NCBI GenBank assembly: GCA_964527425.1
Contig: CAZGOA010000001.1
Coordinates: 20,842 to 84,841, forward strand
Length of the DNA: 64,000 nucleotides
From: an uncultured Gammaproteobacteria bacterium
GTDB taxonomy: Bacteria; Patescibacteriota; Microgenomatia; UBA10105; UBA927
Reading direction: 5' to 3'
Shown here: piece by piece, positions 6,664 through 33,910 of the stretch
Layout: each line of letters opens with the position of its first letter
How positions within the stretch are numbered: the stretch's first letter is position 1
Notes under the pieces: generated by a model
Database searches by the model: none
What the model was told of the DNA's origin: nothing
The model's input: only the letters and a program-made list of their open reading frames with translations
Position numbers and translations under genes: made by a program

Positions 6664-6696
6664 AGATAGCAATTCAAGATAACAATGGTAATTAAA

Positions 6697-16145: not shown

Positions 16146-17252
16146 ATGAATGTACCTTTTGCAGATTTATCACGAATGCATAATCCGATTCGAAAAAAAT
16201 TGGATAAAGCATGGAAAGATGTAGTAGATGCGAATAATTACATTCTTGGAGATCAAGTAGAACAATTTGAACATAAATTTGCTTCTTTTTCTGGAAGTAA
16301 ATATGGCATAGGAGTAGCAAACGGAACAGATGCACTACAACTTGCACTTTTATCACTTGGCATTCAAAAAGGAGATGAAGTTATTATTCCATCTCATACA
16401 TTTATATCAACAGCTCTAGCAGTAAGTTATGCTGGCGCAACCCCTGTATTTGCAGAAATAGAAGAAGACACCTATCTGTTAGATCCAACAAAAATTGAAG
16501 AAAAAATAACTAAAAAAACAAAGGCTATTCTACCAGTATCCTTATATGGACAACCGGTTGATTTATCATCCATACAACAAATTACAAAGAAACATAAACT
16601 AGGATTACTCATTGATGATTGTCAGGCACACGGTGCTACATATAAAGGTAAACCAATGGGTGAATATGGAGATGCTCAAGCATATTCCTTTTATCCAGGT
16701 AAAAACTTAGGAGCGTTTGGAGATGCTGGGTTACTAACAACAAACAATAAAACTATTGAAAAACATGTAAGACTACTTCGCAACATTGGAAGAACAGGCT
16801 GGTATGATCATCCAATTAAAGGATACAACAGTAGACTTGACACTCTTCAAGCCAATATTTTATTAACTAAACTTAAGTATCTTAATAAATGGAATACCGA
16901 TCGTCAAAAAACAGCAGAAATATACAATAAACTACTCCAAGAGTTTCCAATTACGCTCCCAGTCGCAAAACCAGATCGTACCCATATTTATCATCTTTAT
17001 ATAATCAGAACAAAGAGAAGAAAAGAATTTATAAACCATATGTTAAAACATGATGTTCATGTTTCTATTCACTATCCTATTCCAATTCATAAACAAAAAG
17101 CATATAAAGAATTACCAAGCGTTCACCTTCCGATTACAGAAAAAGTTGCCAATGAAGTTGTTTCTCTTCCTCTATTTCCTGGCATTACAATGACGGAACA
17201 AGAATATGTTGCAGATAAAATATCGTTATTCTTTAAAAAATTAACTAAATAG
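16146..17252 (+). CDS. DegT/DnrJ/EryC1/StrS PLP-dependent sugar aminotransferase (WbpE-like)
   Basis: 'ANGTDALQLAL', 'SFYPGKNLGAFGDAG' (PLP lysine present). The likely start is ATG 16146 ('MNVPFADL'), 4 nt after the preceding stop. Confidence 0.8.
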   Translation: MNVPFADLSRMHNPIRKKLDKAWKDVVDANNYILGDQVEQFEHKFASFSGSKYGIGVANGTDALQLALLSLGIQKGDEVIIPSHTFISTALAVSYAGATPVFAEIEEDTYLLDPTKIEEKITKKTKAILPVSLYGQPVDLSSIQQITKKHKLGLLIDDCQAHGATYKGKPMGEYGDAQAYSFYPGKNLGAFGDAGLLTTNNKTIEKHVRLLRNIGRTGWYDHPIKGYNSRLDTLQANILLTKLKYLNKWNTDRQKTAEIYNKLLQEFPITLPVAKPDRTHIYHLYIIRTKRRKEFINHMLKHDVHVSIHYPIPIHKQKAYKELPSVHLPITEKVANEVVSLPLFPGITMTEQEYVADKISLFFKKLTK

Positions 17253-18410
17253 CTTCAAAATCGTTTTAATATCTTTCATTGTCATATCTGGATTATTACC
17301 AAAATACAAACCCTGTTCATGAATCATATTTGCATTAGGATAAGTAGATTTACTTTTTTTGGAGTATTTTTTCATAAATGGTTGAAGGGTCATATCACCA
17401 CCCACAATTGGTCTTATTTCTAAAACACCTTCGCATTTTTTAACTAATTCATCTCGAATCTTCTGAGATTTACAGATTATTGGGACTGCAAAGTTAGATA
17501 ATGTATCTAAATGTGTAAATTTTATAGGGTAAAACCTATCAGATTGCAGGTATAATGTCGAAAAATGATGGAAATTTTCTTCTCTTTTCTTCACTATCTC
17601 ATCTAAGTACGGTAATTGTAATTGTCCGGTAAAACCAGTAATTTCTGTAGGACGAAGATTATATCCTAAATCATAAAAAGTATACCTAGAATAGAATGTC
17701 GAGTTTACTTTAAATTTTCTTCGTATTTCTTCTTGTTTATGAAAAGAAAGATTTCTATCCCATCCATGAGCACGTACTAAATGGAGCATCGTTGCAAGTG
17801 TTTCATCATCAGTACAAATCGCTCCACCTTCAATTGTGGACATATGATGTCCTACATAAAAAGAGAATGTACTAGCTAAACTGTAATTTCCTAATTTTTT
17901 CCCTTTATATACGCTACCTAATGATTCACAATTATCTTCTATTAAGATAATTTTTCTTTTTTTACATATTGCTTCAATTTCATCAATATCATCGCAAAAT
18001 CCTAATAAATTAGTGACAAAAAGTACCTTTAATGACGTTTTTTTTAGTACTGCTAATAAAGTTTTTGAAGATATATTTAATGTATCTACTTCCACATCGA
18101 TTGGCACTGGATTTAATCCTAATTGAATTATTGGCATTACATTTGTAGACCAGGTAACTGCAGAAAATCCGACTTTGTCCCCAACTTTAATCTTTCTTAG
18201 ATTTAACAATGCTTGAATGATTGCTAAATTTGCAGAACTTCCACTATTTACTAAAACGCAATGTTTTCTTTGCTGCCAAGAGGCAAATTGCGATTCAAAT
18301 GTTTTACATTCCGGTCCAAAACTTAATTGCTTGGCGTTAAGAACAAATTGTGACAGTTTTTTTTGCGTTTCTTTTTCTTGATAAAAAGTAGATTTGATGA
18401 GTGGAATCAT
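17241..18410 (-). CDS. DegT-family PLP/PMP enzyme with His replacing the catalytic Lys: 3-dehydratase (ColD/E1-like) candidate
   Basis: DegT-like fold ('LVNSGSSANLAII', 'TIEGGAICTDDE'), but the PLP-lysine position reads 'SFYVGHHMST'. 389 aa. Its 3' end overlaps the convergent aminotransferase by 12 nt. Confidence 0.65.
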   Translation of the reverse strand: MIPLIKSTFYQEKETQKKLSQFVLNAKQLSFGPECKTFESQFASWQQRKHCVLVNSGSSANLAIIQALLNLRKIKVGDKVGFSAVTWSTNVMPIIQLGLNPVPIDVEVDTLNISSKTLLAVLKKTSLKVLFVTNLLGFCDDIDEIEAICKKRKIILIEDNCESLGSVYKGKKLGNYSLASTFSFYVGHHMSTIEGGAICTDDETLATMLHLVRAHGWDRNLSFHKQEEIRRKFKVNSTFYSRYTFYDLGYNLRPTEITGFTGQLQLPYLDEIVKKREENFHHFSTLYLQSDRFYPIKFTHLDTLSNFAVPIICKSQKIRDELVKKCEGVLEIRPIVGGDMTLQPFMKKYSKKSKSTYPNANMIHEQGLYFGNNPDMTMKDIKTILKLFS

Positions 18411-18429
18411 AAATTAATAGTGATATATA

Positions 18430-20292
18430 TCATGTGCGCACAGATACATCAAATATTATTATTTCTTTATCCTCATATACAATAGGAAATTTCTCTTTAA
18501 ACAATGGCAAAGACTCTATGTATGAATAATTATCTTTAGGCTTCAAGGGGAATAAGACATATTGAATATTGTTGTGTTGAAATATTTCCCTATTATCAAT
18601 AGCAGTTTCATTGAACAAGATTGGTACTTCTTTTGTTCTATCAGGTTGTCCAAAATTTCTAAAAAATCCCCAATAGTTTCTGCGTCCTGCTAATGATACT
18701 GGGTCAAAAATATCAGCATATGAAATGAATGTAGATTTCGGAGGCGTACTATCGTGTATCCATTGAATTAACTCGTTTTTACCTGAATATGGAATTCTGT
18801 ACATAAAATCATTTTTTATAACCATAAAATCAATAAAACCTGATGGGATATATAATATAAAACCAATGATACTAATGACCTTAAAGATACGACTTTTCGT
18901 CCATAGTACTGCCAAACCATGTGATGAGACTATTGCAAATAAAATTAAAAAAAGGTTCAAAAATTTTTGATCAAGTTCTGATCCCATCAATATTTTTAAA
19001 CCATAAGCTCCTAGAACTAAAAATAAAAAAGGTAACAGTAATAATTTTTCTGATTTTCTTAAGAAATATATTCCAACTGGAACAGTAATTAAAGCAATTC
19101 CATAATTAACAAAAAATCTATAAAAAACACTAAATTCAGAAGAAAATTTTAGAGAATTTATAGTTGAGATATCTGTTGAAACTGAAGAATACGTAATGTT
19201 CATAATCCATGGTAATAATTCTATTAATCCAATAAAGCTGGAGAGCAATATAAATAAAGACAACGATTGCCATTTTCTGTAAAGTAAATATATTAATCCA
19301 ATTGAATATCCAAATGCTAATGTTAATAAGACATGCCAGTATGGCATTAAACCAATAGATATACCGGCCAATATCGACATTCGTGTTACTGACTGTTTAT
19401 TCTTTAAACTTAGAATCACACATATAAAAAGCATTAAACCAAAAGCCAGTGGAAAAGCTAAATGACGTTGATTCACATACACATTTAAAGTGTGATAAAT
19501 ACTTATAGCAGAACCGTCATACGGTGCTGCAAACATATATGTTGGAATATTCCAAAGTGCAGATAAAGAAATAGAATACTTCTGTAAATAAAACCACCAT
19601 GTTAATGTACTATGACTTAAGACAAATATAACTGCGACTAGCCCAACTATTTTTTTTGATCGCATCAAAATAATTGGAAAATAATAAACAATCATCAATA
19701 AAAGTGTAAATGAGATTATACTAGTAATATTCAACGCATAACCTATTGATAAACCCAGTCGTTCGATAAATCCAGTCCAATAATAAAAAAAGAAATGATA
19801 TATATCTACTGCTCCAGACACGAACGGAGACAAATACGGCACATTATCACCCCAAGAAAAACTACGAATAATTGAGATATTATGACCGAAATCAAATACA
19901 AGATTACTGGCTACCACCAAAGCTTCATCCTGGGTGCGAAACGTTTTATGCATAATATATGAAGAAATAACTAATAATAGAAATAAAACGAGATAGTCGA
20001 AATGGGGAGTAAATATAGCTCGTATAGAAATAGTTTTTTTATGTTTTAGAAAAAACACATAACTTGAAAGAAGAGCTATGCTAATAAACATACCATATGT
20101 AATTTTTAAATTATTCTGTGAAAGAATATCGATTATATAGAGACAAGGAACACTAAAAAATATTCCAAACATTAAAGAAATAAGTGTTTGAAATAGAGTA
20201 TTATTACTCCTAATCTTTACAATTTCTACAATTGCTCTGCCGATGCAATATTGAGTAAAAAAAAGTAGTAAACCCAATAAAATATTAGTCAT
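18430..20292 (-). CDS. polytopic membrane protein with C-terminal extracytoplasmic domain (GT-C-like, family unassigned)
   Basis: 620 aa, about 13 TM helices then a ~140-aa hydrophilic tail. No diagnostic motif recognised. Confidence 0.45.
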   Translation of the reverse strand: MTNILLGLLLFFTQYCIGRAIVEIVKIRSNNTLFQTLISLMFGIFFSVPCLYIIDILSQNNLKITYGMFISIALLSSYVFFLKHKKTISIRAIFTPHFDYLVLFLLLVISSYIMHKTFRTQDEALVVASNLVFDFGHNISIIRSFSWGDNVPYLSPFVSGAVDIYHFFFYYWTGFIERLGLSIGYALNITSIISFTLLLMIVYYFPIILMRSKKIVGLVAVIFVLSHSTLTWWFYLQKYSISLSALWNIPTYMFAAPYDGSAISIYHTLNVYVNQRHLAFPLAFGLMLFICVILSLKNKQSVTRMSILAGISIGLMPYWHVLLTLAFGYSIGLIYLLYRKWQSLSLFILLSSFIGLIELLPWIMNITYSSVSTDISTINSLKFSSEFSVFYRFFVNYGIALITVPVGIYFLRKSEKLLLLPFLFLVLGAYGLKILMGSELDQKFLNLFLILFAIVSSHGLAVLWTKSRIFKVISIIGFILYIPSGFIDFMVIKNDFMYRIPYSGKNELIQWIHDSTPPKSTFISYADIFDPVSLAGRRNYWGFFRNFGQPDRTKEVPILFNETAIDNREIFQHNNIQYVLFPLKPKDNYSYIESLPLFKEKFPIVYEDKEIIIFDVSVRT

Positions 20293-22249
20293 GTTGTTTT
20301 AATTGAATGATACTTATTACTAATAACAATACAATCATGCTGATAAACGATATAGTTGCACCCCATATCGCATAATACTGAGGTATAAAAACCAGTTCAA
20401 CAGAATGTAACAATTCATTTTTAGGTAATGGAAAAGACATGAAACCCAAAGAGGTTTTTACAGGTTCGATCTCTCTATTCTTAGTTTTTAATATCCACTG
20501 TGGATGATAATTCATCAAAAAAAATACCTCGGATATATTCTTATCTTTAATATTCACTGAATAATGTGAAGAAGTATGTTGAATATAGGATAAACCTGTA
20601 CCACTTGAATCTGAGATAAGTGGTGGTGGTAAACCTAAATCATACAAATGTAATTCATTAAACCCTGAAATTTTCGGTATTTGCATCTCGTTTAAAATAG
20701 TAATGTATTTTTCGCGTCTAGTAGGATCATACCGATATTCTGTAAGATACACTTTTTGGGATATATCTGTGGCAACAGCTATATAACGTATTCCTTTACT
20801 TTTTACCGCCTCAATAAAAGATGAAGATGTTGCCTGCTCTGCTAATACATTTTCGTTAAAAGAATCAATTAGCACATTTGCATCAACCATCGGATGCAAA
20901 CTGCTATTGTATGCAAATCGATCATGTTCAGGAATCCATAATACTCTACTAAACTCTTGATCATTCATCATGTAATCTTTGTATCTTTTATACTCGTTAG
21001 AATATTTCGGAGGTGAAAAATTACCTGTAAGCATACCCAAAAATAACTCTTTATGCACAATTCCCCAAAAAATGATTATAAGTAGACTAAATATGTATAC
21101 GAACTTAGAATACTTTTTTTTATCAATTCGAAATTTTTGTAGTATTGCTACCACTGATGCTGGAATTAACACTGAATATGATAGCGATATCAAACTATAA
21201 AACTTGGTTGGATCTCGAAACATGACAAAGCCAGGAATGTGTTCAAAGAAGAAATTATAAACACCACCAAATGGTTCGTTAGTACCTTTAGCTAAAAAAG
21301 ATCCAACAAGACTCAAGACTACAAAAAATAGAATAAATCGGTTAGATGAAAAAACTAATACTGAAAAAGCGATTAATGGGATCAATAAAAATCCAGATTG
21401 GAAAAAATGAACATATCCAAACAGATTTTCTGGCCAGTTGGGGTGCAACAAACTGATAGTATGGCTAAAATCTGCAAAACTCAAAAAATCAACCATTCCA
21501 ACACTATTAATTTCATTTCCTAAACTCGAAACAATATTGTTTGTTAGTATTGCTGGTACAAGCCAATATGAGTGTATGAGCAGGAATAATACACCCACTA
21601 TGCTAAATGAAATAATACTGTTATATAAAATAACGCTAGAAAATAATTGTTTATTATAATAAACAATTAAACCCAATAAGTACATACAAATTAACAGCAT
21701 ACCAACATATCCGAATCTCAAATCACTGGCTATTAATGAAGAAGTAATCAACGATGTTTTTATTAATATGAGAAGATTTTTATTACAATGATACTTTACA
21801 ATAAAGTGACTACCCAACAAAGATTTAGTCAGAATTATCCAATAATAAAAAAAGAGAGGAAGTAACGAATATCCTACAAATACACCTAATTGACCACCTC
21901 CAAATATCATAAGTGCATATGTGTTTGTAGAATAAATAATTGCTGAAATTATTGAAAGCTGAGATGATGCAAAAAAATATTTACTTAATTTAAATGCAGA
22001 ATAAAAACATAACCCAACAATTCCCAACCAAATACATTTATCAATTAACCACCAATCAAACCCAAACAAACTTAATACCTTAATTGTCAATTGAAGTGGA
22101 TAATCATACCAAAGTCTATATATAACTGATTCACCCAAACCATGTACATCATTCCACACAACTGGATACCATGTGATTGATTGTATTTGATCTGAATAAA
22201 AAAATGGTGCGTCTCCCCCAGCAAAATAACGAGAAAACCAATCAATCAT
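20285..22249 (-). CDS. polytopic membrane protein, GT-C-like, sharing N-terminal loop and C-terminal 'YHPQW'+TM module with the 1019-aa protein
   Basis: 654 aa. C-terminus 'MNYHPQWILKT...' is followed by a final TM helix, paralleling 'TYHPGWKIVKS' in 23271..26309. Confidence 0.5.
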   Translation of the reverse strand: MIDWFSRYFAGGDAPFFYSDQIQSITWYPVVWNDVHGLGESVIYRLWYDYPLQLTIKVLSLFGFDWWLIDKCIWLGIVGLCFYSAFKLSKYFFASSQLSIISAIIYSTNTYALMIFGGGQLGVFVGYSLLPLFFYYWIILTKSLLGSHFIVKYHCNKNLLILIKTSLITSSLIASDLRFGYVGMLLICMYLLGLIVYYNKQLFSSVILYNSIISFSIVGVLFLLIHSYWLVPAILTNNIVSSLGNEINSVGMVDFLSFADFSHTISLLHPNWPENLFGYVHFFQSGFLLIPLIAFSVLVFSSNRFILFFVVLSLVGSFLAKGTNEPFGGVYNFFFEHIPGFVMFRDPTKFYSLISLSYSVLIPASVVAILQKFRIDKKKYSKFVYIFSLLIIIFWGIVHKELFLGMLTGNFSPPKYSNEYKRYKDYMMNDQEFSRVLWIPEHDRFAYNSSLHPMVDANVLIDSFNENVLAEQATSSSFIEAVKSKGIRYIAVATDISQKVYLTEYRYDPTRREKYITILNEMQIPKISGFNELHLYDLGLPPPLISDSSGTGLSYIQHTSSHYSVNIKDKNISEVFFLMNYHPQWILKTKNREIEPVKTSLGFMSFPLPKNELLHSVELVFIPQYYAIWGATISFISMIVLLLVISIIQLKQHD

Positions 22250-23274
22250 ATGTTTTTATTTCGTGTACTTTTTTTTAGTTTAATAAATAAATTATCTATT
22301 TCTGATTTAGTGTACCCAAATAACGTTACCCAACAAGCAATTGGATGCATGAACCATGCTATATCTGGTTTTACAATATATCCGCGCAAACTCATTAATA
22401 TATTTGGAATCAGTGTAATTGTACAAAAACAAAAAATCATTAATGAGAGTAAATCGTTAACGTTTTTAAAATCAAAAACAATATAATCTCTTTTTTTTAT
22501 AGACGTATCTATATACTGGTTTCGGTAAATAACTCTTCTCTTTATAAAACGTCTTAAACTTTTCCCGGTAAAATGTACTATGGAATTATTTACTACTCCG
22601 AATTGATTATATTGCTTTATTACTAATCTCATAAACATATCAGTGTGTAAAAATTGTTCTCCTTCAATAATTACCGATTTTAATTCTTTTATGCGAACCA
22701 TATGACCATTATCACCTAATGTTGGAAGATTATTAGGATTAAACATAACTGTCTCATATTTTGAATTTTTTGAAATAATATGACCTTTCTTATAATCGGT
22801 TTCATAATGGGTTAATTTTTCTGACTTACCAAGAAACAACACAAAAGGATCATTAATGCCAAATAATCCACAATACCGAGTCAATAAAGGCATACGTTTA
22901 TCAACATAATTATATTTGCTAAAAGTTCCAACAATATGAGGATTATCAATAAACGGTTGAACCATATATGCAAGCCACGTTTTAGATGTAACAAAATTAT
23001 CAAATTCTAGTATTAATAATAAATCACCATTTACTAATTTAATTCCTTTCGCTGCCCTCATTAACGCAAAATCTTTATATTGTCTTTGAACTATAACTTC
23101 ACACCCAAATGATTTAGCTATTTCAATAGAACCATTTGTAGAACCACCATCCATAACAATATGGCGAATTCTATTTTTAGGATACTCTTGCTGAGCTAAA
23201 TTTATTAAACATTGCTTAACAAGATATATATCAGTGTTGTAAGAGACTGTTAATATTGTTACAAATGGTTTCAT
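22246..23274 (-). CDS. glycosyltransferase family 2
   Basis: 'VTILTVSYNTDIYLVKQCL...IVMDGGSTNGS'. Confidence 0.75.
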   Translation of the reverse strand: MKPFVTILTVSYNTDIYLVKQCLINLAQQEYPKNRIRHIVMDGGSTNGSIEIAKSFGCEVIVQRQYKDFALMRAAKGIKLVNGDLLLILEFDNFVTSKTWLAYMVQPFIDNPHIVGTFSKYNYVDKRMPLLTRYCGLFGINDPFVLFLGKSEKLTHYETDYKKGHIISKNSKYETVMFNPNNLPTLGDNGHMVRIKELKSVIIEGEQFLHTDMFMRLVIKQYNQFGVVNNSIVHFTGKSLRRFIKRRVIYRNQYIDTSIKKRDYIVFDFKNVNDLLSLMIFCFCTITLIPNILMSLRGYIVKPDIAWFMHPIACWVTLFGYTKSEIDNLFIKLKKSTRNKNI

Positions 23275-26200
23275 ATTTTTGATTTTTTTATATCCATATA
23301 TATATAGACAGAAAATACTCCTAAACTTAAGAAGGTTATAAGAAAACCACTAATTACAAATATTTGAGGTAAAAAGTAAAATGTATACTTAGTACTTTCT
23401 GAAGATGCAGGGATTACCCAACCATTACTAAATCCAAACAACTCTATATGTTTTTCGGTAGATTCTTCATTTGAACTAGAAAATAAGGCTAATACATATA
23501 AAAAGACAGAAAAAATATTTTCATTAGTATTTTTTGACTTTACTATTTTCCAACCAGGATGATATGTAGAAGGGATAGAAAGTATACGCGGATATTTTGA
23601 TGAAGGAATGGTAACGGTAAACACTACAGGACTCATTTGAACATATCGTTCTACCTCTTGCGCGGGCTGATTTATTTCATTAATGACCCTCTTAACATAT
23701 ATACTAGGAATATGTTTATGAACAATATTCCTAATAGTGCGTAATTCTATATTATGTAGACCTTCATTGAGCATCAACGGTTTATTATCATTTACCTTAT
23801 TACCGTCGATAAAGATGTCCCAAAAAATCTTATCCGTATCTTTAAAAATAATTTCAAGATTTTCTTCAGTTTCAGGCAGCGTTACAGCATATTTGTAAAT
23901 ATTTCTTTCTGGATCAGAGATAATAACTTTTTTACTAATTTTGTTTAGCATTTCATTAAGGAATGGGTTAATCTCAGTAAATTGATTTTTGTTTGCTTCT
24001 ACATACCGTAATTGTGCTAATAAAAATGCATATATACGAGATCTATATTCCTGTTGTCTTTCTGGAACAAGTTTACTCAAATTGATAATAATATCTTCTA
24101 TAAAGGTTTTGTAAACTGCTATTTTTTGAAATTCATTAGGAATCTTTAGTAGTGCTCTATTAGAGAATGATAAATCCATATCAATTTTTGAACCTGGATC
24201 TATTGTTGGATTGTTGTATAGCTTTGTTTCTTTATGTGAAAGTAATCCCTGACTATTTATTGAAGATGTATTATACGCTGCTATATCGATGCTACTCACA
24301 AAATTTTCAAATTCATTCTCTTTGCAATACAAACAATTAGCTTTCCATATTTGTGTATTAACTTCTTTCAAAACAGATTGAGCTGGCAAAAAAGAATCAT
24401 ACATTACAGCAGCATTACTGGCATTTAATGATAAAAGATGGTTCATTGAATCTTTAGGAGCAAACACCTGCGTTAATGAATTATAAACAAACGGCTTAAC
24501 ATCAGCGTTAATCTCATACAAAGACCATTCTCCTCTCTCTAATACTTTTTTAATCAAAGGAGTTGTATCAAGTAGAGTAGACCATGTACTAATCATTTTT
24601 TGTTTAAACTGTGTATCTTTTATTTCAATATCTTTTCTAAAGAGTATATGAGATATACCCATTAAGTTACTAAGTTGATTTACACTTTTTATTTCTTCAT
24701 TTTTTAAAGAGTTTAGTAATGATTGAATAATTTCTGGAGTTCCTGCAGAATTACCTACTACTGGTTTATCAAATAACAACCATTGAAAAGGTTCCAAACT
24801 ATAATAACCCCATGTGTAAGTATCAGTTGGTACATTAATATACCCTGTATCAATTTCAGGAACAATTAATATTTTTTTGACAGCTTGAGATGATTTTATA
24901 TATTCATCTACCTGATATACATACGTTGGAACGTTAACAAGTGTCGAAAATCCCCAAGTAAACGCAAAAGGATTATTTATAAAAATTGGTATGTGATACA
25001 GAAATATTCCTAAGATTATTACCGCAGAAATTAATAATCGATTTTTTTGGAAAATATTTTTAACATCAGTAAGTATATAGATACTGTATGAAAATAATAT
25101 GCTCATTGAGAAAATTGTTAATGGCATGAATTTGTAATAACTTGAACGAAATATCGCAAAACCAGGAATCTTTCGCATCATTAATTCAAAAATAATTCCT
25201 GTTGGGGGATGTGTTCCTGTAGAAAAAATAATTCCTAAGACAAACAATAATAATAATGTATAAAACCAAAAAGTATAATATTTCCTTTTTCTCTTGAACG
25301 TAATATAAATTAATGCAGCGAAAATTAGTAATATGGGAATTAATCCCATACTATACAAAATAATGTTTGAATAGTTGTTTGAATATGAATATGCATTTTC
25401 ACCAATCCAATTTGGTGAGCCTGTTATTCTGATTACGTTCAGTATGCTTGCATTAACACTTACCATTTTCTCCCAAAGAATAGCACCCTCGATACCTCCC
25501 ACTGCTGATACTGTAGATGAATAACCTGTTGTTAAATATGATAAAAAAGGTAATAACCAATACGCTTGAGATAATATACCTGAGAAGAGTAACCCAATGA
25601 CTATTAATAGAGTTCTTCTTAATCCAGCAATACGAAATAAGGTAATTTCTCTTAATCCGAATACAAAAACCAATAGGAATACTGCGATACCATAAGCTCC
25701 TAATAAAGGAGGTAATCCTGCACTATTAAATAAAAAAAACACAAAAAAATAATATACTAATGATCGAATAATAGTAGACCTTCTAATAAATAGATTATGT
25801 AAAATTAGACACGTTAATGGTAATAAAACAAATAATGAAAACTTAGGCCTATCTGCAATAAACCACAATTCAAACATAAAAAAATTTATTGTATAAAAAA
25901 CTGGACCTATGATTCGTATAATTCTGTAATCAATTGCAGGAAATAACGTTCTCAAGAAGATGTACATAGATATACTCATTAAGAAAAACCATCCTAAGAG
26001 TATAATTCGTTGACCAATATCGATCCCACATATGTACATAACTGTTGTTTCAACAACATTCATAGTAAAAAAGCCACGGGGATACGGCCAATCATTTCCC
26101 GTACTAAAGTTATTATTCCAAGCATAAAAGTGATTTATCACCTGATTTTGAGGTTGTAAGGAAAACGCAGAATCATGACCTAAAACTATACCACCCGACC

Positions 26201-26309
26201 TCATCCACCATAGAGGTAGTAAAGAGAGTAAAAAAAGAAATAATACCTCAGGTATATAATGTTTCCATTGCTTGAGCATAGGACTTCCAAGTAAAGGTTG
26301 ATAGTACAT
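23271..26309 (-). CDS. large (~1010 aa) GT-C-like membrane protein: N-terminal polytopic domain plus ~550-aa extracytoplasmic region plus C-terminal TM anchor
   Basis: Loop motif 'LGHDSAFSLQPQN...WPYPRGFF' after TM1; about 14 TM helices; C-terminal 'YHPGWK' beta-rich region and a terminal TM. The track start 26330 is TTG; ATG at 26309 or 26279 is more likely. Confidence 0.5.
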   Translation of the reverse strand: MYYQPLLGSPMLKQWKHYIPEVLFLFLLSLLPLWWMRSGGIVLGHDSAFSLQPQNQVINHFYAWNNNFSTGNDWPYPRGFFTMNVVETTVMYICGIDIGQRIILLGWFFLMSISMYIFLRTLFPAIDYRIIRIIGPVFYTINFFMFELWFIADRPKFSLFVLLPLTCLILHNLFIRRSTIIRSLVYYFFVFFLFNSAGLPPLLGAYGIAVFLLVFVFGLREITLFRIAGLRRTLLIVIGLLFSGILSQAYWLLPFLSYLTTGYSSTVSAVGGIEGAILWEKMVSVNASILNVIRITGSPNWIGENAYSYSNNYSNIILYSMGLIPILLIFAALIYITFKRKRKYYTFWFYTLLLLFVLGIIFSTGTHPPTGIIFELMMRKIPGFAIFRSSYYKFMPLTIFSMSILFSYSIYILTDVKNIFQKNRLLISAVIILGIFLYHIPIFINNPFAFTWGFSTLVNVPTYVYQVDEYIKSSQAVKKILIVPEIDTGYINVPTDTYTWGYYSLEPFQWLLFDKPVVGNSAGTPEIIQSLLNSLKNEEIKSVNQLSNLMGISHILFRKDIEIKDTQFKQKMISTWSTLLDTTPLIKKVLERGEWSLYEINADVKPFVYNSLTQVFAPKDSMNHLLSLNASNAAVMYDSFLPAQSVLKEVNTQIWKANCLYCKENEFENFVSSIDIAAYNTSSINSQGLLSHKETKLYNNPTIDPGSKIDMDLSFSNRALLKIPNEFQKIAVYKTFIEDIIINLSKLVPERQQEYRSRIYAFLLAQLRYVEANKNQFTEINPFLNEMLNKISKKVIISDPERNIYKYAVTLPETEENLEIIFKDTDKIFWDIFIDGNKVNDNKPLMLNEGLHNIELRTIRNIVHKHIPSIYVKRVINEINQPAQEVERYVQMSPVVFTVTIPSSKYPRILSIPSTYHPGWKIVKSKNTNENIFSVFLYVLALFSSSNEESTEKHIELFGFSNGWVIPASSESTKYTFYFLPQIFVISGFLITFLSLGVFSVYIYMDIKKSKI

Positions 26310-27435
26310 AATCTTTACCTTTATTTGCAATATTCTTTTTTCTATTTTCCGAACGAATATAATAAATTATCGCATTACTTAACTGTTCAATATTTCCTCC
26401 ATCATATAAAAGTGCATCTATTTTATCATGTAAAACTTCTGCTACTCCTGATCCTCGAGATACTATTACTGGCGTTCCCAAAGCCAAAGATTCAAGAACC
26501 GTAAGCCCCCATGTTTGCGGAGAATTAGGAAATACTAACATATCTGCAGCAGATATATATTCCATTCGATCATTATCATTGACGAATCGGTTAATTATGT
26601 ATACTTTATGATTAATTTCCAAAGTATTAATTAACTTTTTGAGTTTATTTGCATATTTTAGATCGGCATTTAAATTAGAAAGTAAAATGAATACAAGATC
26701 ATATGATTTTTTATTTAAAACGCTTAGTGCTGAAAGGATATCTTCGTATCTGCGATGAGGAGAAAGAATATTTGCACCTATAGAAATTATGGAATTGGGA
26801 GAAATACCCAATTCTTTTCGTATATCCTTGGTTGGTATAAATTCTAAATATTTTTTTCTATCTACACCGCTTCGTATGATATGTATTTTTGAGGTATCTT
26901 TCTTAAGCCAAGATGTAACTAGACTGTAATTGCGCTTATCTAATACTGTTATTGCATCAATTGTAGTACCTGCATGTCTATCAATAAATAATTTGAAACG
27001 AGTGAATAAAGACTTACTAAGTCTCGGTGGAACATCATTAATTGTAGTAATTTTTCTTGTTGAAGAACTTTTTATTCCTGATTGAATCCACATCGTCATC
27101 CAATCATGACCGTGTAAAATATCAAATTTATTCCGACGTATTATTATGTGAAATAAAGGAGTATTTAATAAAGCTATGTATAACATTATTGTTTCAATAA
27201 AAAATATATTTATGTTAAACATTCTTATTAATATACTGGGAAAAGGTAATATAGATTTAACCTTAAACTTTTTATAACCTATATCCGCTGTTTCTGGTAT
27301 ATATATACAAGTAAGAATGGTAATAGTATACCCTTCTTCAACCAAAGATTTTGATAATTCTAAACATTGTTTTGCAGTCCCATTCTGCGTAATTAACACA
27401 GGAAGTAGCATACAAACATGCAGTTTTTTTTTCAT
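26248..27435 (-). CDS. glycosyltransferase family 4
   Basis: 'WGLTVLESLALGTPVIVSRGSGVAEVL'. The gene starts 'MKKKL', encoded by an A9 tract. Confidence 0.8.
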   Translation of the reverse strand: MKKKLHVCMLLPVLITQNGTAKQCLELSKSLVEEGYTITILTCIYIPETADIGYKKFKVKSILPFPSILIRMFNINIFFIETIMLYIALLNTPLFHIIIRRNKFDILHGHDWMTMWIQSGIKSSSTRKITTINDVPPRLSKSLFTRFKLFIDRHAGTTIDAITVLDKRNYSLVTSWLKKDTSKIHIIRSGVDRKKYLEFIPTKDIRKELGISPNSIISIGANILSPHRRYEDILSALSVLNKKSYDLVFILLSNLNADLKYANKLKKLINTLEINHKVYIINRFVNDNDRMEYISAADMLVFPNSPQTWGLTVLESLALGTPVIVSRGSGVAEVLHDKIDALLYDGGNIEQLSNAIIYYIRSENRKKNIANKGKDYVLSTFTWKSYAQAMETLYT

Positions 27436-28353
27436 TTATAAAGTTATGTTAAGGAGTTTTAAAATTATTGCCTTTTGTATGTGAAGTCTATTTTCAGCTT
27501 CATCCCAAACAATGGATTGTGGCCCATCAATAATTTCATCGGTAATTTCATCATTTCTATGTGCTGGTAAACAATGCATAACAACGACATTCTTTTTTGC
27601 ATATTGCAATAGTTTTTTGTTTACTTGATAAGGTCTTAACGCTTTTTCTCGCTCCTCTTTGTCTGTTTTTCCCATACTTACCCATACATCTGTAACTACT
27701 ACATCTGCATTTTTTACAGCTACAGAAGGGTCTGTTATCATATCAAATGTTCCGTTATATTTTTTAGATAATACTTCTATTTCTTTAACTATTTCTTTAT
27801 TCATTTCATACATTTTAGGAGATGAAACACGACAGTGCATACCTAATTGCATAGCTAGTATAGCTAAACTATTTGTCATATTATTATCTCCGTCTCCTAC
27901 ATATGTTAATGTAAATTTAGATAATTCTTTCTGTCTTTCCCATAAAGTAAACATATCTGCTAATACTTGACATGGATGAAATTCATCACTTAGTCCGTTA
28001 ATAACTGGCTTACCTGAATATTTAGATATCGTAACCACATCATCGTGAGAAAAAACTCTTGCCATAATAATATCGACATATCTGCCTAATACTCTGGCTG
28101 TATCAGCAATTGTTTCCCCTCTAGAAAGTTGTAGATCATTTGCACCTAAATACAACGCATGTCCACCCAATTCTGTCATCCCGACTTCAAAACTAACTCG
28201 TGTTCTTGTTGATGGTTTTTGGAAAATCATTGCCATTGATTTTCCTTTCAAATATGAATAATATCTTTTTTGCTTTATTTTTTTAGCAGTTTTAAACAAT
28301 TCATAAATTTCTTTTAGTGAGAAATCAGTAGTGGTTAATAGAGATAGAGGCAT
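27436..28353 (-). CDS. argF: ornithine carbamoyltransferase
   Basis: 'STRTRVSFE' carbamoyl-P site, 'DVWVSMG', 'HCLPAHR' ornithine-binding motif; 305 aa. Confidence 0.85.
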   Translation of the reverse strand: MPLSLLTTTDFSLKEIYELFKTAKKIKQKRYYSYLKGKSMAMIFQKPSTRTRVSFEVGMTELGGHALYLGANDLQLSRGETIADTARVLGRYVDIIMARVFSHDDVVTISKYSGKPVINGLSDEFHPCQVLADMFTLWERQKELSKFTLTYVGDGDNNMTNSLAILAMQLGMHCRVSSPKMYEMNKEIVKEIEVLSKKYNGTFDMITDPSVAVKNADVVVTDVWVSMGKTDKEEREKALRPYQVNKKLLQYAKKNVVVMHCLPAHRNDEITDEIIDGPQSIVWDEAENRLHIQKAIILKLLNITL

Positions 28354-29425: not shown

Positions 29426-30572
29426 ATACTCTTCAATTATATATGTTAATTTTGCACCGTATGAAAATGCGGGACATATACTTGATTATTTATTAGATAC
29501 ATATGAGATAGTAATACTCTTTTGCTTTAATTTTCATAAATTAACTAATAAAGAAGAACCAAGTTTGTTAAAAATTTATAAACTAAAAAAACTAACTTAT
29601 ACTCATAAACTTTACTATATACCTACTCCTCAAGCATTAGTTTTTGTACTTCTTCCTTTACGATCGGCAATAATTTTTTTGCAATTACTATGGCATATAC
29701 TAAGACTTCATATATCTATAGGTAAAATAGATACCTATTTTACTGTAAACGCTTTTACTGCTTGGTGTGGAATTATTTTTAAACGTTTACATTTTGTTAA
29801 CAGAACAATTTTCTGGGTATGGGATTATTACCCTCCAATTCATACGAATAAGATTGTCATGTTTATGAGATGGTTATATTGGTTGTATGATAAACCTGCC
29901 ACATTGCATTCAGACAAAATCGTTTTTTTGAATAAAAACTTAATAGAACTTAGAAAAAGACATAATATTCTAAAAAAAGATACAAAGTATTCTATTGTAG
30001 AAATCGGAACTAATCCTGTAAAAACAATCTCAATAAAGAAAAAATCATCAGTTAATCTTGTTTTTTTAGGTGTAATCAAGAAAAGTCAGGGATTAGATTT
30101 GTTATACGATGCTGCATCTGAAATCAAAGAAAATTTTCCATCTATTACTATTACAGTAATTGGATCTGGACCTGAAGAATCGCATTTTAAAAAAAGAGCC
30201 AAAAATACAAAATTAAAAACGAAATTTCTTGGATTTGTAGCAGATGATCAATTAGTAGATCTCACTATTAAACAAGCACACATTGGGTTGGCTTCTTATA
30301 TTCCAGAAAAGAGCAATGTTTCTTATTATAGTGACCCATCTAAGATAAAACGATATATTAGTTCAGGTATTCCTGTAATTACTACAGATGTTTTCGACTT
30401 TTCAAAAAAAATTAAGAAATTTAAAGCGGGTATATTAATTGAATATGATAAAAAAGAATTAGCTAGAGCTATAACTACAATATTAAAATCCTATTCTTTT
30501 TATCAAAAGAATGCATTAAATCTATCAGAGCAATATAAATATTCTACCATATACAAAAGAATTTTTAATTAA
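29418..30572 (+). CDS. GT-B glycosyltransferase (GT4-like), paralog of 33922..35097
   Basis: C-terminal 'KFLGFVADDQLVDLTIKQAHIGLASY...SGIPVITTD'. The N-domain architecture matches gene 33922..35097. Confidence 0.65.
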   Translation: MNKYSSIIYVNFAPYENAGHILDYLLDTYEIVILFCFNFHKLTNKEEPSLLKIYKLKKLTYTHKLYYIPTPQALVFVLLPLRSAIIFLQLLWHILRLHISIGKIDTYFTVNAFTAWCGIIFKRLHFVNRTIFWVWDYYPPIHTNKIVMFMRWLYWLYDKPATLHSDKIVFLNKNLIELRKRHNILKKDTKYSIVEIGTNPVKTISIKKKSSVNLVFLGVIKKSQGLDLLYDAASEIKENFPSITITVIGSGPEESHFKKRAKNTKLKTKFLGFVADDQLVDLTIKQAHIGLASYIPEKSNVSYYSDPSKIKRYISSGIPVITTDVFDFSKKIKKFKAGILIEYDKKELARAITTILKSYSFYQKNALNLSEQYKYSTIYKRIFN

Positions 30573-31680
30573 GCTTCTGTTTTTGTATTGCAATCATTCC
30601 TGAGAGTAATTTTATTACTTTGGTTGAAATATTTAATTCTTGATAATGAATAGACGGATTCAACTGATTGGCTAAATGCTGTGTCGAGAGTGTTGTCGAT
30701 ATTGCTTGCATTACATCTCCTGCTTCTAGCCCACAGACTATGATTGAACCAGCATCAAATGCTTCAGGTCGCTCCGTTGATGTTCGAAGCTGAATAGCAT
30801 TACATTTAAGTATCGATGATTCTTCTTGAATTGTGCCAGAATCAGATAATACACATAAGGCATTTTTTTGAAGCTTAATATAATCAAAAAACCCAAATGG
30901 TTTATGAAATATAATATTCTTATTATTCATTATGAATCCTTGTAAACGCATTTTAGTGCGTGGATGTAGTGAAACAATTATAGGTTTTTTATATTCATCT
31001 ACAACAGCTTGTAACGTGTTAATCAACTTCCTTAAAGGTTTTGGATCATCAACATTTTCTTCTCTATGAACACTTACTAAAAAATATGAATTAGGATTTA
31101 ATGACAGTTTTTTAAGAATATTTGATTTTTCAATAGATTCTGCATAGTAATCAATTACTTCTTTTAGAGGAGAACCAAACACAAAGATAGAGTCAGGGTC
31201 TATACCTTCTTCAAGTAAATATCTTCGTGCATGTTCGGTATAACATATATTAAAGTTGCTGATATGATCTACTATTCTCCTATTAATTTCTTCAGGAACA
31301 CGCCAATCAAAGCATCTATTACCTGCTTCCATATGAAATATTGGTATATTCATACGTCTTGCTATGATTGCTGAGAGAGAACTATTAGTATCTCCCAAAA
31401 TTAAAATTGCATCTGGATTAATTCTACTAATAATATCTTCCGTTTGTGATAAAATATTACCAATTAATCTACTAAGGATATTAGATTTTACATCCAAAAT
31501 ATGATCAGGCGCCCGCAAATTAAGCTCATCAAAGAAAATCCCACTTAATTCAAAATCATAATTTTGGTTAGTATAAACAAATACATGCTTAAATACTACA
31601 TCAAGAGCAGGAAGTATCCGTGATAAGCGAATAATTTCAGGTCTAGTCCCTAAAATAGACATTACTGTATATTTATGCAT
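30565..31680 (-). CDS. UDP-N-acetylglucosamine 2-epimerase family (CapG/FnlC/WecB-like)
   Basis: 'MSILGTRPEIIRL', 'HMEAGNRCFDWRVPEEINRRIVDHIS'. Confidence 0.8.
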   Translation of the reverse strand: MHKYTVMSILGTRPEIIRLSRILPALDVVFKHVFVYTNQNYDFELSGIFFDELNLRAPDHILDVKSNILSRLIGNILSQTEDIISRINPDAILILGDTNSSLSAIIARRMNIPIFHMEAGNRCFDWRVPEEINRRIVDHISNFNICYTEHARRYLLEEGIDPDSIFVFGSPLKEVIDYYAESIEKSNILKKLSLNPNSYFLVSVHREENVDDPKPLRKLINTLQAVVDEYKKPIIVSLHPRTKMRLQGFIMNNKNIIFHKPFGFFDYIKLQKNALCVLSDSGTIQEESSILKCNAIQLRTSTERPEAFDAGSIIVCGLEAGDVMQAISTTLSTQHLANQLNPSIHYQELNISTKVIKLLSGMIAIQKQKLN

Positions 31681-31684
31681 ATTT

Positions 31685-32722
31685 TTATTTTAATTCCTCT
31701 TTAATCTCAGGAAGTGATAAAAGTAAAGAAATAGTCTGTTCTTCACTTAACTGTTGAGTATTTCCAGATGTATAAGCTTGTAGATTATCTTTATATGTTG
31801 ATTTTCCTTCACTAAAATAGGTTTGATAATTAAAATGCTTTCCTTCTGGAGCTATTTTATAATAATCACCAACATCAAATGCCCTTAAAAATTCTTCACT
31901 GGTTATTAAAGTTTCATGTATTTTTTCTCCCGATCTAATTCCTACATATTGAATACCTTTTTTATAAGAAAAAATTTTATTAATACTTTGTGCTAGGGTT
32001 TCTATAGTACATGCCGGAGATTTTTTTACGTACATAAATCCATTTTCTCCTTTTGAAAGAGCGTAAAGTACTAAGCCAACAGCATTTGGCAATGGCAATA
32101 AAAATCGAGTCATCGTAGGGTCTGTTATTGAAAGTTTTTCTCCTTTTTTAATTTGTTCTACGAAAAAAGGAATTACTGACCCTCGTGAATATAATACATT
32201 TCCATAACGCACACCGCAAATAGTTGTAGTATGTTTTTTTTCATCTAATTCTCTAGCCTTTGCTACCATAACTTTTTCCATAAGTGCCTTAGACATTCCC
32301 ATTGCATTGATAGGATAAACAGCTTTGTCAGTACTCAATACAACTACTCGTTTTACCTTGTGTGATATAGCACTTCTTAAAATATTTTCTGCTCCAATGA
32401 TATTTGTTTGTACTGCTTCAAGAGGGAAAAACTCACATGAAGGTACCTGTTTAAGAGCAGCTGCATGAAACACATAATCTACTTTCTCCATGGCAGATTC
32501 AATACTTTGATAATTTCTAACATCTCCTATAATGAATTGCAATAATGGTGATTGAAACTCATTTCTCATATCAAATTGTTTCTTTTCATCTCTGCTGAAA
32601 ATTACTATTTTTTTTGGATTTTTAGGTAACAATTGTTTAATTACTGCATGACCAAAAGATCCTGTACCTCCTGAAATAAAAAACACTTTATTTTTTATAT
32701 ATTTATTAAATAATTCATTCAT
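31685..32722 (-). CDS. UDP-GlcNAc 4,6-dehydratase (CapE/FnlA/WbjB/PseB-like polysaccharide biosynthesis protein)
   Basis: 'ISGGTGSFGHAVIKQLL', 'VFHAAALKQVP'. Confidence 0.75.
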   Translation of the reverse strand: MNELFNKYIKNKVFFISGGTGSFGHAVIKQLLPKNPKKIVIFSRDEKKQFDMRNEFQSPLLQFIIGDVRNYQSIESAMEKVDYVFHAAALKQVPSCEFFPLEAVQTNIIGAENILRSAISHKVKRVVVLSTDKAVYPINAMGMSKALMEKVMVAKARELDEKKHTTTICGVRYGNVLYSRGSVIPFFVEQIKKGEKLSITDPTMTRFLLPLPNAVGLVLYALSKGENGFMYVKKSPACTIETLAQSINKIFSYKKGIQYVGIRSGEKIHETLITSEEFLRAFDVGDYYKIAPEGKHFNYQTYFSEGKSTYKDNLQAYTSGNTQQLSEEQTISLLLSLPEIKEELK

Positions 32723-32724
32723 AA

Positions 32725-33111
32725 TTATATTGTGTAAGTATCAGAGTCATTAGGATTATACTCTTCACTAATGTAAACTAATAATATTAATTCTTCTACT
32801 CCAATATTTTCTATTTGATGAAATATGCCCATAGGCATCTCTACTATGGTTGGGTTATCAGCACTTAATTCAATTATTTCACTGTCTTTAGTATTCAAAT
32901 TCTTCAATGTTAATAATCCTTTTCCCTTAATAACACAATACCATTCACGCTTTCGATTATGATAATGCCCTCCTTTTTTCATTCCAGGTTTAGCTGTTGT
33001 TATTAGAATCTGTCCAAATGTTGATTTACCTACATGTTCAGCTCTTAATAGTTCATACAACATTCCACGTTCATCTCTTTTTACTTGTAATTTTCTAATA
33101 GATACTTTCAT
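32725..33111 (-). CDS. cupin-fold sugar epimerase/isomerase (CapF C-domain-like or FdtA-like)
   Basis: 128 aa, 'KKGGHYHNRKREWYCVIKGKG' His-containing cupin motif. Overlaps the upstream SDR gene by 17 nt. Confidence 0.6.
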   Translation of the reverse strand: MKVSIRKLQVKRDERGMLYELLRAEHVGKSTFGQILITTAKPGMKKGGHYHNRKREWYCVIKGKGLLTLKNLNTKDSEIIELSADNPTIVEMPMGIFHQIENIGVEELILLVYISEEYNPNDSDTYTI

Positions 33112-33910
33112 AATCTTTATTCAAAATTTCTTGAATACCTTCCAGAATATTCGTCCTAGGAAACCAACCATCATTTGTTTGTATAGTATCTGGAACGATT
33201 TTTGGTAATTCTTTTGGTTCAGGATTATTCGTTTTAAGTATTTTAATTTTTCTTCCCGTAATATTTCGAATAACGGTAATTATATCGTTAAGAGATAGTT
33301 GTGTACCAGAACAAATATTATAAGTACTACTATATATAGTAGTCTTTTTAGACTGAATAATTAATAAAAAAGCGTTTACTACATCTTCAATATATATATA
33401 ATCTCTTTTTTGCTCACCATCATTATTTAAATTTATTGATTGATTATGTAATATTTGATAAAGGTATGTAGAAATAACAGAATTATAGAAAGGCTTACAA
33501 CCAGGACCATATACATTACTTAACCTCAAAATTGTAGATTTAATCTTGTTTCTTTTTGCATATAATGCAAGTAATTCTTCACAGGTTTTTTTTGATAAAC
33601 CATATATAGAATTTTCATAGAATATTTGAAATGAAGAAGAGAACAGAATGTGTGCTTTTGGATTAAAATTATTTACAACATCCAGTAATGAAAGAGTAAG
33701 ATTAATATTTGTGTTAAAAATATCTATATCAGATCCACGATTTTTTCCTCCTAGATGAATAATAATATCTGCATTAGTTACTTCTTTTGTGAAATTTTTA
33801 TTTATCTTTTTTGGGATTCTACAGACATTAAACGCTATATTATATTTGTTTAGTTTTTTAACAAGATGCCTTCCTATAAAACCTGTATGTCCAGTAACTA
33901 ATATTTGCAT
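33095..33910 (-). CDS. short SDR NAD(P)-dependent reductase (CapF N-domain-like)
   Basis: 'MQILVTGHTGFIGRHLVKKL', 'YGLSKK'; 271 aa. Confidence 0.7.
   Translation of the reverse strand: MQILVTGHTGFIGRHLVKKLNKYNIAFNVCRIPKKINKNFTKEVTNADIIIHLGGKNRGSDIDIFNTNINLTLSLLDVVNNFNPKAHILFSSSFQIFYENSIYGLSKKTCEELLALYAKRNKIKSTILRLSNVYGPGCKPFYNSVISTYLYQILHNQSINLNNDGEQKRDYIYIEDVVNAFLLIIQSKKTTIYSSTYNICSGTQLSLNDIITVIRNITGRKIKILKTNNPEPKELPKIVPDTIQTNDGWFPRTNILEGIQEILNKDYESIY

Follow-up and report, generated by a model that had tools for sequence, protein, structure and literature searches.

AftD, the glycosyltransferase of the GT-C superfamily that completes the arabinan of the mycobacterial cell wall, has so far been regarded as particular to the cell wall of the mycolata. 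In the reference proteins (Rv0236c and MAB AftD; PDB entries 6W98, 6WBX and 6WBY; Pfam family PF11847, GT-C_AftD, formerly DUF3367), transmembrane helices (TM) 1-11 lead into a soluble GT-C domain, after which come three carbohydrate-binding modules (CBMs), a β-sandwich, TM12 and, as a separate bundle, TM13-16, to which acyl carrier protein (ACP) binds, and residues K39, D41, E251, K361 and D474 are essential (10.1101/2019.12.22.885152). A smaller AftD-like protein, MmpA (NCgl2761/Rv0226c), is encoded in Corynebacterineae in the tmaT locus, which also encodes aftD (PMC8698533). In the papers searched we found no link between AftD-type enzymes or arabinofuranosyltransferases and Patescibacteria. 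Here we describe two membrane proteins, referred to as the large (1012 aa) and the small (654 aa) protein, that are encoded in a 64,000-nucleotide (nt) stretch of contig CAZGOA010000001.1 (assembly GCA_964527425.1, positions 20,842 to 84,841, forward strand), hereafter the window. The assembly carries the name of an uncultured Gammaproteobacteria bacterium, and its GTDB lineage is Patescibacteriota, Microgenomatia, UBA10105, UBA927. We are highly confident that both proteins are GT-C proteins of the AftD family.

The initial annotation of the window, made from the sequence alone, had described a 1019-aa and a 654-aa membrane protein on either side of a family 2 glycosyltransferase (GT2) and had compared their organisation with that of AftD. 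Both open reading frames (ORFs) were present on the minus strand as described, and the comparison with AftD held at the levels of fold and sequence profile. The larger ORF (23271-26330) encodes 1019 aa when read from a TTG, and the 1012-aa form that starts at ATG 26309 corresponds to the public protein P0001. The features discussed below are collected in Table 1.

Fold and homology of the two membrane proteins

AlphaFold models were obtained for the large protein (pLDDT 82.3, pTM 0.77) and the small protein (pLDDT 90.2, pTM 0.92) and compared with the PDB by Foldseek. AftD (6w98_A) was the top match of both, with an E-value of 2.8e-12 and a query-normalised TM-score of 0.51 for the large protein, and an E-value of 1e-7 and a root-mean-square deviation of 5.9 over 600 columns for the small one. 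The next matches were STT3, ArnT, PglB and AftA for the large protein and STT3, ArnT, AglB and PimE for the small protein. At E <= 0.001 the matches of both models were exclusively GT-C enzymes, namely AftD and STT3; ArnT, PglB/AglB, AftA and PimE followed at E 0.002-0.04. A transporter fold in place of a GT-C fold, which the initial annotation had named as the opposing outcome, was ruled out: matches to MFS, ABC and ferroportin structures had E-values above 0.1 and probabilities below 0.15.

Sequence identity to AftD is about 10%. Single-sequence phmmer searches of the PDB sequences returned noise for both proteins, and the profile of the large family alone reached AftD at E ~2 only; the 654-aa family profile alone matched the AftD sequence at E 7.8e-5. 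When the two families were merged into one profile, AftD 6w98_A was matched at E 1.1e-17 (66.6 bits) in three colinear segments, and AftD was the only match in the PDB sequences, with no oligosaccharyltransferase (OST) among them. The first segment (profile positions 42-242) corresponds to AftD 56-250, covering TM2-7, and the second (383-498) to AftD 405-540, covering the last TM and the soluble α/β domain, where the motif 'GIxYvlvptD' faces 'GISYLVVRNDL' of AftD. The third (565-641; i-Evalue 0.0056) corresponds to the C-terminal module of AftD (1197-1275); here 'fdPGW...nGf.gfiip' is aligned with 'inPGW...NGWqqGWvlP' and the alignment continues into the re-entry helix of AftD.

The large and small proteins are also homologous to each other. 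Their whole membrane core and first soluble domain could be aligned by BLASTP (E 3e-9), and profile-profile comparison of the core with hhalign gave a probability of 99.8% and an E-value of 5.4e-29 over 540 columns. The C-terminal module, about 125 residues long including the terminal TM, was aligned with a probability of 99.0% (E 8.9e-18), in agreement with the initial annotation, which had recognised it by the shared motif 'YHPQW'. The parts common to the two proteins are a core of ~11-12 helices, a loop-1 Asp, an Arg/Lys loop, the soluble α/β domain, and the C-terminal β-sandwich ('PxW ... NGW'), which is tied back to the membrane by the final helix. Because the merged profile aligns the C-terminal module to AftD 1197-1275, we regard this module as a hallmark of the AftD family.

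Domain architecture

Hydropathy and the AlphaFold model of the large protein indicated ~11-12 N-terminal TM helices, one terminal TM helix and, between them, a soluble region of ~525 aa (residues ~455-980). The soluble region of ~550 aa and the terminal TM proposed in the initial annotation were thus recovered, and its count of about 14 TM helices was slightly high. The soluble α/β domain is the part of the large protein that is covered by its match to PF11847. An insert of ~350 aa, absent from the small paralogue, consists of a DUF5667-like helical bundle and then β structure; in the model, strands at 804-979 precede a helix at 982-1009. The DUF5667 matches of two homologues, P0013 and P0020, correspond to residues ~680-755 of the large protein. 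CBM families, which the initial annotation had considered for the soluble region, were not detected in the large window protein, the region being made up of the DUF5667-like bundle and a β-sandwich instead. A single weak CBM_4_9 match (23.7 bits, cut-off 25.9) was found in P0020, inside an insertion that is missing from the window protein and belongs to the 1100-1190-aa size class. A DUF5667-type helical domain is also common to the soluble insert of the larger relatives of the 1012-aa protein and to a 505-aa protein encoded elsewhere in the window (53421-54938, minus strand), which has a GT2 domain at its N-terminus and matches DUF5667 weakly.

The likeness to AftD thus comprises the GT-C core, an acidic residue in loop 1, and a terminal β-sandwich with the re-entry helix (AftD TM12), in addition to the structural match itself. 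The three CBMs of AftD are missing here; the large protein has the DUF5667-like bundle instead, and the small one nothing. The TM13-16 bundle is likewise missing from both window proteins, which stop after the equivalent of TM12 and end 3-10 residues past their single terminal TM helix, and therefore have no ACP-binding site. AftD also comes from an actinobacterial host, whereas the window comes from a Patescibacterium, and no arabinofuranose-donor pathway was found in the neighbourhood among the 48 window ORFs scanned.

The small paralogue differs from AftD further in that it has no TM1. Of 38 aligned relatives, 30 have no TM helix before the GD motif, and 8 retain an N-terminal helix before 'IIGGDWPYYY'; the invariant GD loop of the family begins 8-13 residues downstream of the start Met. 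It is unlikely that an N-terminal extension was missed, because the stop codon of the upstream gene overlaps or abuts the start of the small gene in several loci.

Conserved motifs and a candidate active site

The Asp of the 'GHDSAF' motif in the first extracytoplasmic loop of the large protein (D53 of the 1019-aa ORF) was invariant in 19 of 19 homologues and is a candidate catalytic or metal-binding residue. In the small family, G12 and D13 of the 'GGD' motif were invariant in all 38 members, and hhalign paired GHDSAF of the large protein with GGDAPFF of the small one, so that D53 was aligned to D13. By the topology of homologous enzymes, the loop-1 Asp would face outward. A second conserved loop precedes the penultimate TM of the large protein; its G, P, F, R and K were invariant in the large-protein family (alignment A1), and the R and K of 'PGF..FR...KF' were invariant in both families (in the 654-aa protein, R345 and K349). 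This loop is a putative donor-phosphate binding site. In both families the Asp of the soluble 'GI.Y....D' motif was invariant as well (D495 of the 654-aa protein).

The initial annotation had drawn a parallel between GHDSAF and the 'THDG' motif of three paralogs in the window, and hhalign indeed aligned GHDS of the large family with THDG (probability 94.7%). The three are YfhO-like (PF09586) GT-C proteins, located at 50653-52272 (minus strand), 54940-56589 (minus strand) and 61724-63397 (plus strand), with mutual identities of 29-33%; the third member reads HTSDG at this position. The trio was aligned with the small AftD-like family at a probability of 98%. PF09586 itself gave no match in the large or small window proteins and weak matches in 2 of 38 homologues of the small paralogue. 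YfhO acts in teichoic-acid glycosylation (CsbB/GtcA/YfhO); it resembles the window proteins in the GT-C fold, in the 'HD'-type loop-1 motif and in the mechanism to be expected, with a lipid-phosphate-sugar donor and an extracytoplasmic polymer acceptor. The window proteins differ from it in their AftD-type C-terminal module and soluble domain, and in having no adjacent GtcA/GtrA flippase.

A conserved triad of GT-C-type genes

Twenty loci were obtained from a scan of species-representative genomes, and all their ORFs were searched with the family profiles. In 12 loci (the window, L003/L014, L005-L013 and L017) the large gene, the small gene and a gene of the type encoding the 620-aa protein of the window followed one another in this order on one strand, with the 620-aa-type gene directly after the small AftD-like gene; 7 further loci had the large-then-small order. 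The 620-aa protein, a partner not noticed in the initial annotation, gave no sequence match in Pfam, NCBIfam or the PDB. By hhalign, however, its family was aligned with the 654-aa family at a probability of 95.3% (E 2e-8; 459 columns, among them those of the soluble domain), and with the large family at a probability of 87%. Its invariant motifs are FDFGH, RSFSWG, YHF and NQRHLA. On these sequence relationships, the 620-aa protein appears to be distantly GT-C-like. What is conserved as a functional unit is the GT-C triad (large, small and 620-aa protein) and not a GT-C/GT2/GT-C arrangement.

Some variation was seen among the loci. On a Gottesmanbacteria chromosome (L003, 12688-16647, equivalent to L014, 12646-16605), the 620-aa-type protein has 1319 aa, with ~700 aa extra that represent a fusion or an extension. 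Small hydrophobic ORFs lie between the large and small genes in L003 (10888-11061, 57 aa), L004 (11545-11925, 126 aa) and L016 (4718-5083, 121 aa); these may be membrane subunits or flippase-like proteins. The informative record titles among the loci were Gottesmanbacteria, Roizmanbacteria, Microgenomates group and Patescibacteria group. The remaining titles read 'uncultured bacterium' or 'uncultured Gammaproteobacteria', the latter in L008, L010, L011, L013, L016, L019, L021, L022, L025 and L026, and are in these cases probably placeholders or mislabels of the deposited assemblies.

The large-protein family is large and unannotated. A word-indexed search had returned 21 relatives, and the rarity that this number suggested was shown to be a filter artefact by an exhaustive hidden Markov model (HMM) search, in which 11,171 cluster representatives matched the large-protein profile at E <= 0.001; at least 2,560 did so at E <= 1e-30. 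The 150 best matches listed all had E <= 3e-189 and were mostly full length (~950-1200 aa). For the small protein at least 588 homologues were found, and the few named ones came from Patescibacteria/Microgenomates.

Proposed role and alternative explanations

Considering the fold, homology, paralogy, conserved motifs and synteny described above, we think it probable that the large and small proteins are paralogues that belong to the AftD branch within the GT-C superfamily and add polyprenyl-phosphate sugars to a surface glycan outside the membrane. What we infer here is the catalytic activity, the type of donor, the acceptor and the order in which the proteins act. By analogy with solved GT-C enzymes, each AftD-like protein would use a polyprenyl-phosphate sugar in the outer leaflet as donor and pass the sugar on to a growing surface glycan outside the cytoplasmic membrane, while the soluble domains and the β-sandwich clamp would hold the acceptor polymer. 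The members of the triad would work in succession on a single polymer, with a different linkage formed by each. Donor sugars would be loaded on the lipid by GT2 enzymes resembling ArnC, PpgS and AglJ. Short GT2s that matched AglJ, PpgS, ArnC and dolichyl-phosphate hexose transferase models over their full length were found; they directly adjoin the triad in L010 and L003, and in the window they are encoded at 46925-47731 and 48959-49642, with a Wzx-type (Polysacc_synt) flippase between them (47721-48962). These proteins are better candidates for lipid-phosphate-sugar donor synthases than the 342-aa GT2 located between the large and small genes.

Several observations weigh against this interpretation. 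The PF11847 score of the large protein (21.8 bits) falls below the cut-off of 26, and a Pfam scan gave no PF11847 match at all for the 654-aa protein; within the families, in favour of the assignment, 3 of 19 large and 7 of 38 small members matched PF11847 at E <= 0.01, and two homologues in the large family passed the cut-off, P0020 with 47.3 bits and P0011 with 28.3 bits. By ungapped extrapolation, D13 of the 654-aa protein falls near AftD residue 42, beside D41, but this equivalence is an extrapolation and not an alignment, because the HMM alignments begin at AftD residue 56. The small paralogue has no TM1, and its catalytic loop would therefore have to reach the outside as a free tail at the N-terminus. 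The polyprenyl-phosphate-sugar synthase candidates of the window lie 25 kb from the triad, no ORF for a small flippase of the GtrA, SMR or MATE type was present in the 17.2-28.4 kb region, and all homologues are metagenome-derived. Finally, the small AftD-like MmpA of mycobacteria has been assigned a role in lipid transport or scaffolding and not in catalysis (PMC8698533).

This last point underlies a different explanation, in which the small AftD-like paralogue, and perhaps also the 620-aa protein, is non-catalytic and handles or delivers a lipid intermediate or serves as a scaffold, leaving the large protein as the sole enzyme. MmpA is homologous in part to AftD's N-terminal 668 residues, and its loss leads to impaired transport of trehalose lipids (PMC8698533); AftD itself interacts with TmaT in a role that is not enzymatic (10.64898/2026.07.31.741767). 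MmpA (NF053599) was also the only NCBIfam match of the 654-aa protein (E 2.4e-6), although at 26.4 bits against a cut-off of 210. The lack of TM1 in the small paralogue speaks for this explanation as well. MmpA, too, is short, AftD-like and polytopic, its extracytoplasmic domain lying ahead of the last TM, and in both cases a large and a small protein are paired in one locus. MmpA differs in being linked to trehalose-mycolate transport, and no catalytic motif has been reported for it, whereas all 38 diverse members of the small family share the loop-1 Asp, the Arg and Lys of 'FR..KF' and the Asp of the soluble domain without exception, a pattern to be expected of an active site rather than of a scaffold. 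Mycolate-type lipids would, moreover, not be expected in Patescibacteria, which are not known to produce them. We consider a non-catalytic small paralogue unlikely. A reading that goes beyond our own, in which the triad is a physical three-enzyme assembly line specific to Patescibacteria, with the catalytic tail of the small paralogue positioned by its partners, a wall polymer that takes over the role of mycobacterial arabinan and AftD/MmpA-type pairing as an ancient two-component module instead of an invention of the actinobacteria, strikes us as decidedly unlikely. An OST-like activity, that is, en bloc transfer of a glycan from a polyprenyl-diphosphate carrier to a protein such as an S-layer protein or a pilin, is suggested by STT3, PglB and AglB as the next-best structural matches behind AftD, and by the Wzx-type flippase and Wzy_C-like proteins of the window, which handle diphosphate-linked glycans. 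We nevertheless rate it as very unlikely: a pattern search found no WWDxG motif in the large, small or 620-aa proteins, on which ground OST membership was rejected, the sequence profile selected AftD to the exclusion of any OST, and the C-terminal module is AftD-specific.

The initial annotation had suggested that the two GT-C proteins and the intervening GT2 may form a polymerising unit; on such a reading the GT2 would be obligatory, as a polymer synthase or as a lipid-phosphate-sugar donor synthase. The three genes do overlap, by 4 nt each, the GT-A domain and C-terminal hydrophobic helices of the GT2 resemble GtrB-type enzymes, and GT2-family orthologues occur ~4-8 kb from the triad in at least six other loci. 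Orthologues near the triad were identified in L005, L007, L008, L011, L021 and L003 (35-78% identity), those in L007, L008, L011 and L003 being a few kb upstream and 33-44% identical over their full length, and L021 having two copies. The position between the GT-C genes is, however, limited to the window and its closest relative, L005 (large protein 58% identical); in L006, L007, L009, L011, L012 and L017 the small and large GT-C genes abut or overlap. The 342-aa GT2 family is for this reason a loose neighbour and not a fixed spacer. Its best profile matches in the PDB (6P61, TarS, PcManGT and BcsA) covered the nucleotide-binding half only, with ArnC and DPMS at E > 0.1, and its NCBIfam matches were weak and generic, so that a donor synthase of the GtrB/ArnC/DPM1 type was unsupported. 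The proposal is weakened by the synteny and by the type of the GT2, and an obligatory role of this GT2 appears highly unlikely. As AftD is the closest characterised relative, the proteins might also be true arabinofuranosyltransferases that use decaprenyl- or undecaprenyl-phospho-arabinofuranose. The enzyme set for pentofuranose donors has been described (PMC11127046). Among 48 window ORFs scanned with Pfam (the ORFs at 60340-61662 and 61724-63397 being left out), no UbiA-type phosphoribosyltransferase or DprE1/E2-type epimerase was matched, which argues against arabinofuranosyl transfer, as does the low identity to AftD; donor specificity of GT-C enzymes is not predictable from the fold. Arabinofuranose is probably not the transferred sugar, and we give almost no credence to a genuine AftD-like arabinofuranosyl activity.

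We thus favour AftD-branch enzymes acting outside the membrane on a surface glycan. The kind of enzyme is already known, and PF11847 already reaches some of the relatives; the result is a solid annotation of hypothetical proteins and not a new kind of system, and it demonstrates no new mechanism. New are the assignment, at the levels of fold and profile, of two large Patescibacteria families of "hypothetical proteins", the reduced AftD variants (no CBMs, no ACP-binding bundle, and loss of TM1 in the small one), and the fixed three-gene arrangement with a third, distant GT-C-like protein. The triad provides a handle on how surface glycans are built in ultrasmall, uncultivated, host-dependent bacteria, a poorly known subject, and minimal AftD-type enzymes could help to tell what belongs to the catalytic core of AftD and what to its accessory modules. 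The resemblance of the large/small pair to AftD and MmpA in Mycobacteriales suggests that the MmpA-AftD relationship deserves re-examination.

Gene run and surrounding cluster

The triad lies in an uninterrupted run of seven minus-strand genes that encode, in order, ornithine carbamoyltransferase (OTCase), a family 4 glycosyltransferase (GT4), the large GT-C protein, the GT2, the small GT-C protein, the 620-aa protein and a DegT-family enzyme. The successive intergenic gaps are 0, -62, -4, -4, -8 and +19 nt, the -8 being an overlap of the small GT-C gene and the 620-aa gene, and the large and small GT-C genes are translationally coupled within this one run. Consensus scanning of the 16.8-28.8 kb region found fewer promoter-like sites than in shuffled sequences and terminators at chance level.

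Table 1. Genes of the seven-gene run and features of the AftD-like proteins (positions in the window)
Feature	Position	Strand	Evidence or remark
Ornithine carbamoyltransferase (OTCase)	27436..28353	-	416 bits, cut-off 306; first gene of the run
GT4 glycosyltransferase	26248..27435	-	PF00534, E 6.7e-24; overlaps start of large protein
Large AftD-like GT-C protein	23271..26309	-	1012 aa from ATG 26309; Foldseek, AlphaFold, PF11847
GHDSAF, first extracytoplasmic loop of large protein	26163..26180	-	Residues 51-56 of the 1019-aa ORF
Loop 'GTHPPxG...IPGFAIFRSSYYKF' before penultimate TM, large protein	25128..25217	-	Family alignment; candidate donor-phosphate site
Soluble α/β domain of large protein, motif 'GISHILFRKDIE'	24330..24962	-	Aligned with 654-aa paralogue and AftD 405-540
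Helical-bundle insert (DUF5667-like), large protein only	23934..24314	-	Model helices 666-792
C-terminal module of large protein: β-sandwich, 'YHPGW' + 'NGW', terminal TM	23283..23663	-	hhalign, merged profile
GT2, 342 aa, membrane-anchored, GT-A domain + C-terminal hydrophobic helices	22246..23274	-	PF00535 (Glycos_transf_2), E 4e-12
Small AftD-like GT-C protein, 654 aa	20285..22249	-	AlphaFold, Foldseek, family profile
GGD loop motif of small paralogue, residues 11-13	22211..22219	-	Alignment of 38 homologues
C-terminal 'YHPQW' β-sandwich + terminal TM, small paralogue	20297..20605	-	hhalign, family and merged profiles
Third triad member, 620 aa, polytopic, distant GT-C-like	18430..20292	-	hhalign against 654-aa family
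DegT-family enzyme, RfbH/ColD-like, candidate sugar 3-dehydratase	17241..18410	-	PF01041, E 7.5e-65; end of the run

At the downstream end, the best NCBIfam match of the DegT-family enzyme was RfbH (218.6 bits, cut-off 423). The enzyme reads 'SFYVGHHMSTIEGG', in which a His occupies the position of the pyridoxal phosphate-binding Lys of aminotransferases, a replacement that is characteristic of sugar 3-dehydratases of the ColD/E1 type. The protein is thus probably a dehydratase of this type and not an aminotransferase, and an RfbH-like neighbour hints at a deoxy-sugar. Its orthologues follow the third GT-C gene in L005 and L006. The combination of a DegT-family sugar enzyme, a GT2 that loads undecaprenyl phosphate and GT-C transfer outside the membrane is reminiscent of the ArnB-ArnC-ArnT and Gtr/GT136 systems. 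The present run differs from these in having three consecutive GT-Cs instead of one and an RfbH/ColD-like dehydratase instead of an aminotransferase; in addition, the GT2 between the GT-Cs is not ArnC/GtrB-like and no flippase was identified in the unit.

At the upstream end, the GT4 gene keeps its position directly before the large gene in L005, L006, L013 and L004. The OTCase gene is separated from it by a 0-nt gap, an arrangement also found in L005, and may serve a housekeeping function (arginine deiminase pathway) or the carbamoylation of a glycan component. A NodU/CmcH-type carbamoyltransferase is encoded at 35094-36878.

Nearly all of the 64 kb of the window, which has a G+C content of ~30%, is a glycan-biosynthesis cluster in which the triad is surrounded by GT4s, GT2s, PMT_2 and YfhO-like GT-Cs and nucleotide-sugar enzymes; no tRNA or tmRNA genes were found by a tRNA scan of the window. 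Tandem polytopic paralogues without a Pfam match (47% identical) are encoded at 38449-40161 and 40158-41864 on the minus strand, and a second tandem pair (32% identical) at 57020-58645 and 58649-60343, also on the minus strand, where 58649-60343 matches PMT/PMT_2. Further PMT_2 proteins are located at 5155-6672 and 44443-45783. Confirmed and candidate GT-C-type proteins together number up to about 12 in the window. A 992-aa protein (6697-9675, minus strand) is predicted to have ~22 TM segments, matches Wzy_C (O-antigen ligase/polymerase) only weakly and below the cut-off, and is unusually large for the Wzy_C family. Four consecutive minus-strand genes at 30565-33910 encode an FnlA-like UDP-GlcNAc 4,6-dehydratase/5-epimerase, a cupin, a WbcJ-like reductase and a WecB-like 2-epimerase, and resemble the UDP-L-FucNAc/6-deoxy-L-hexosamine pathway.

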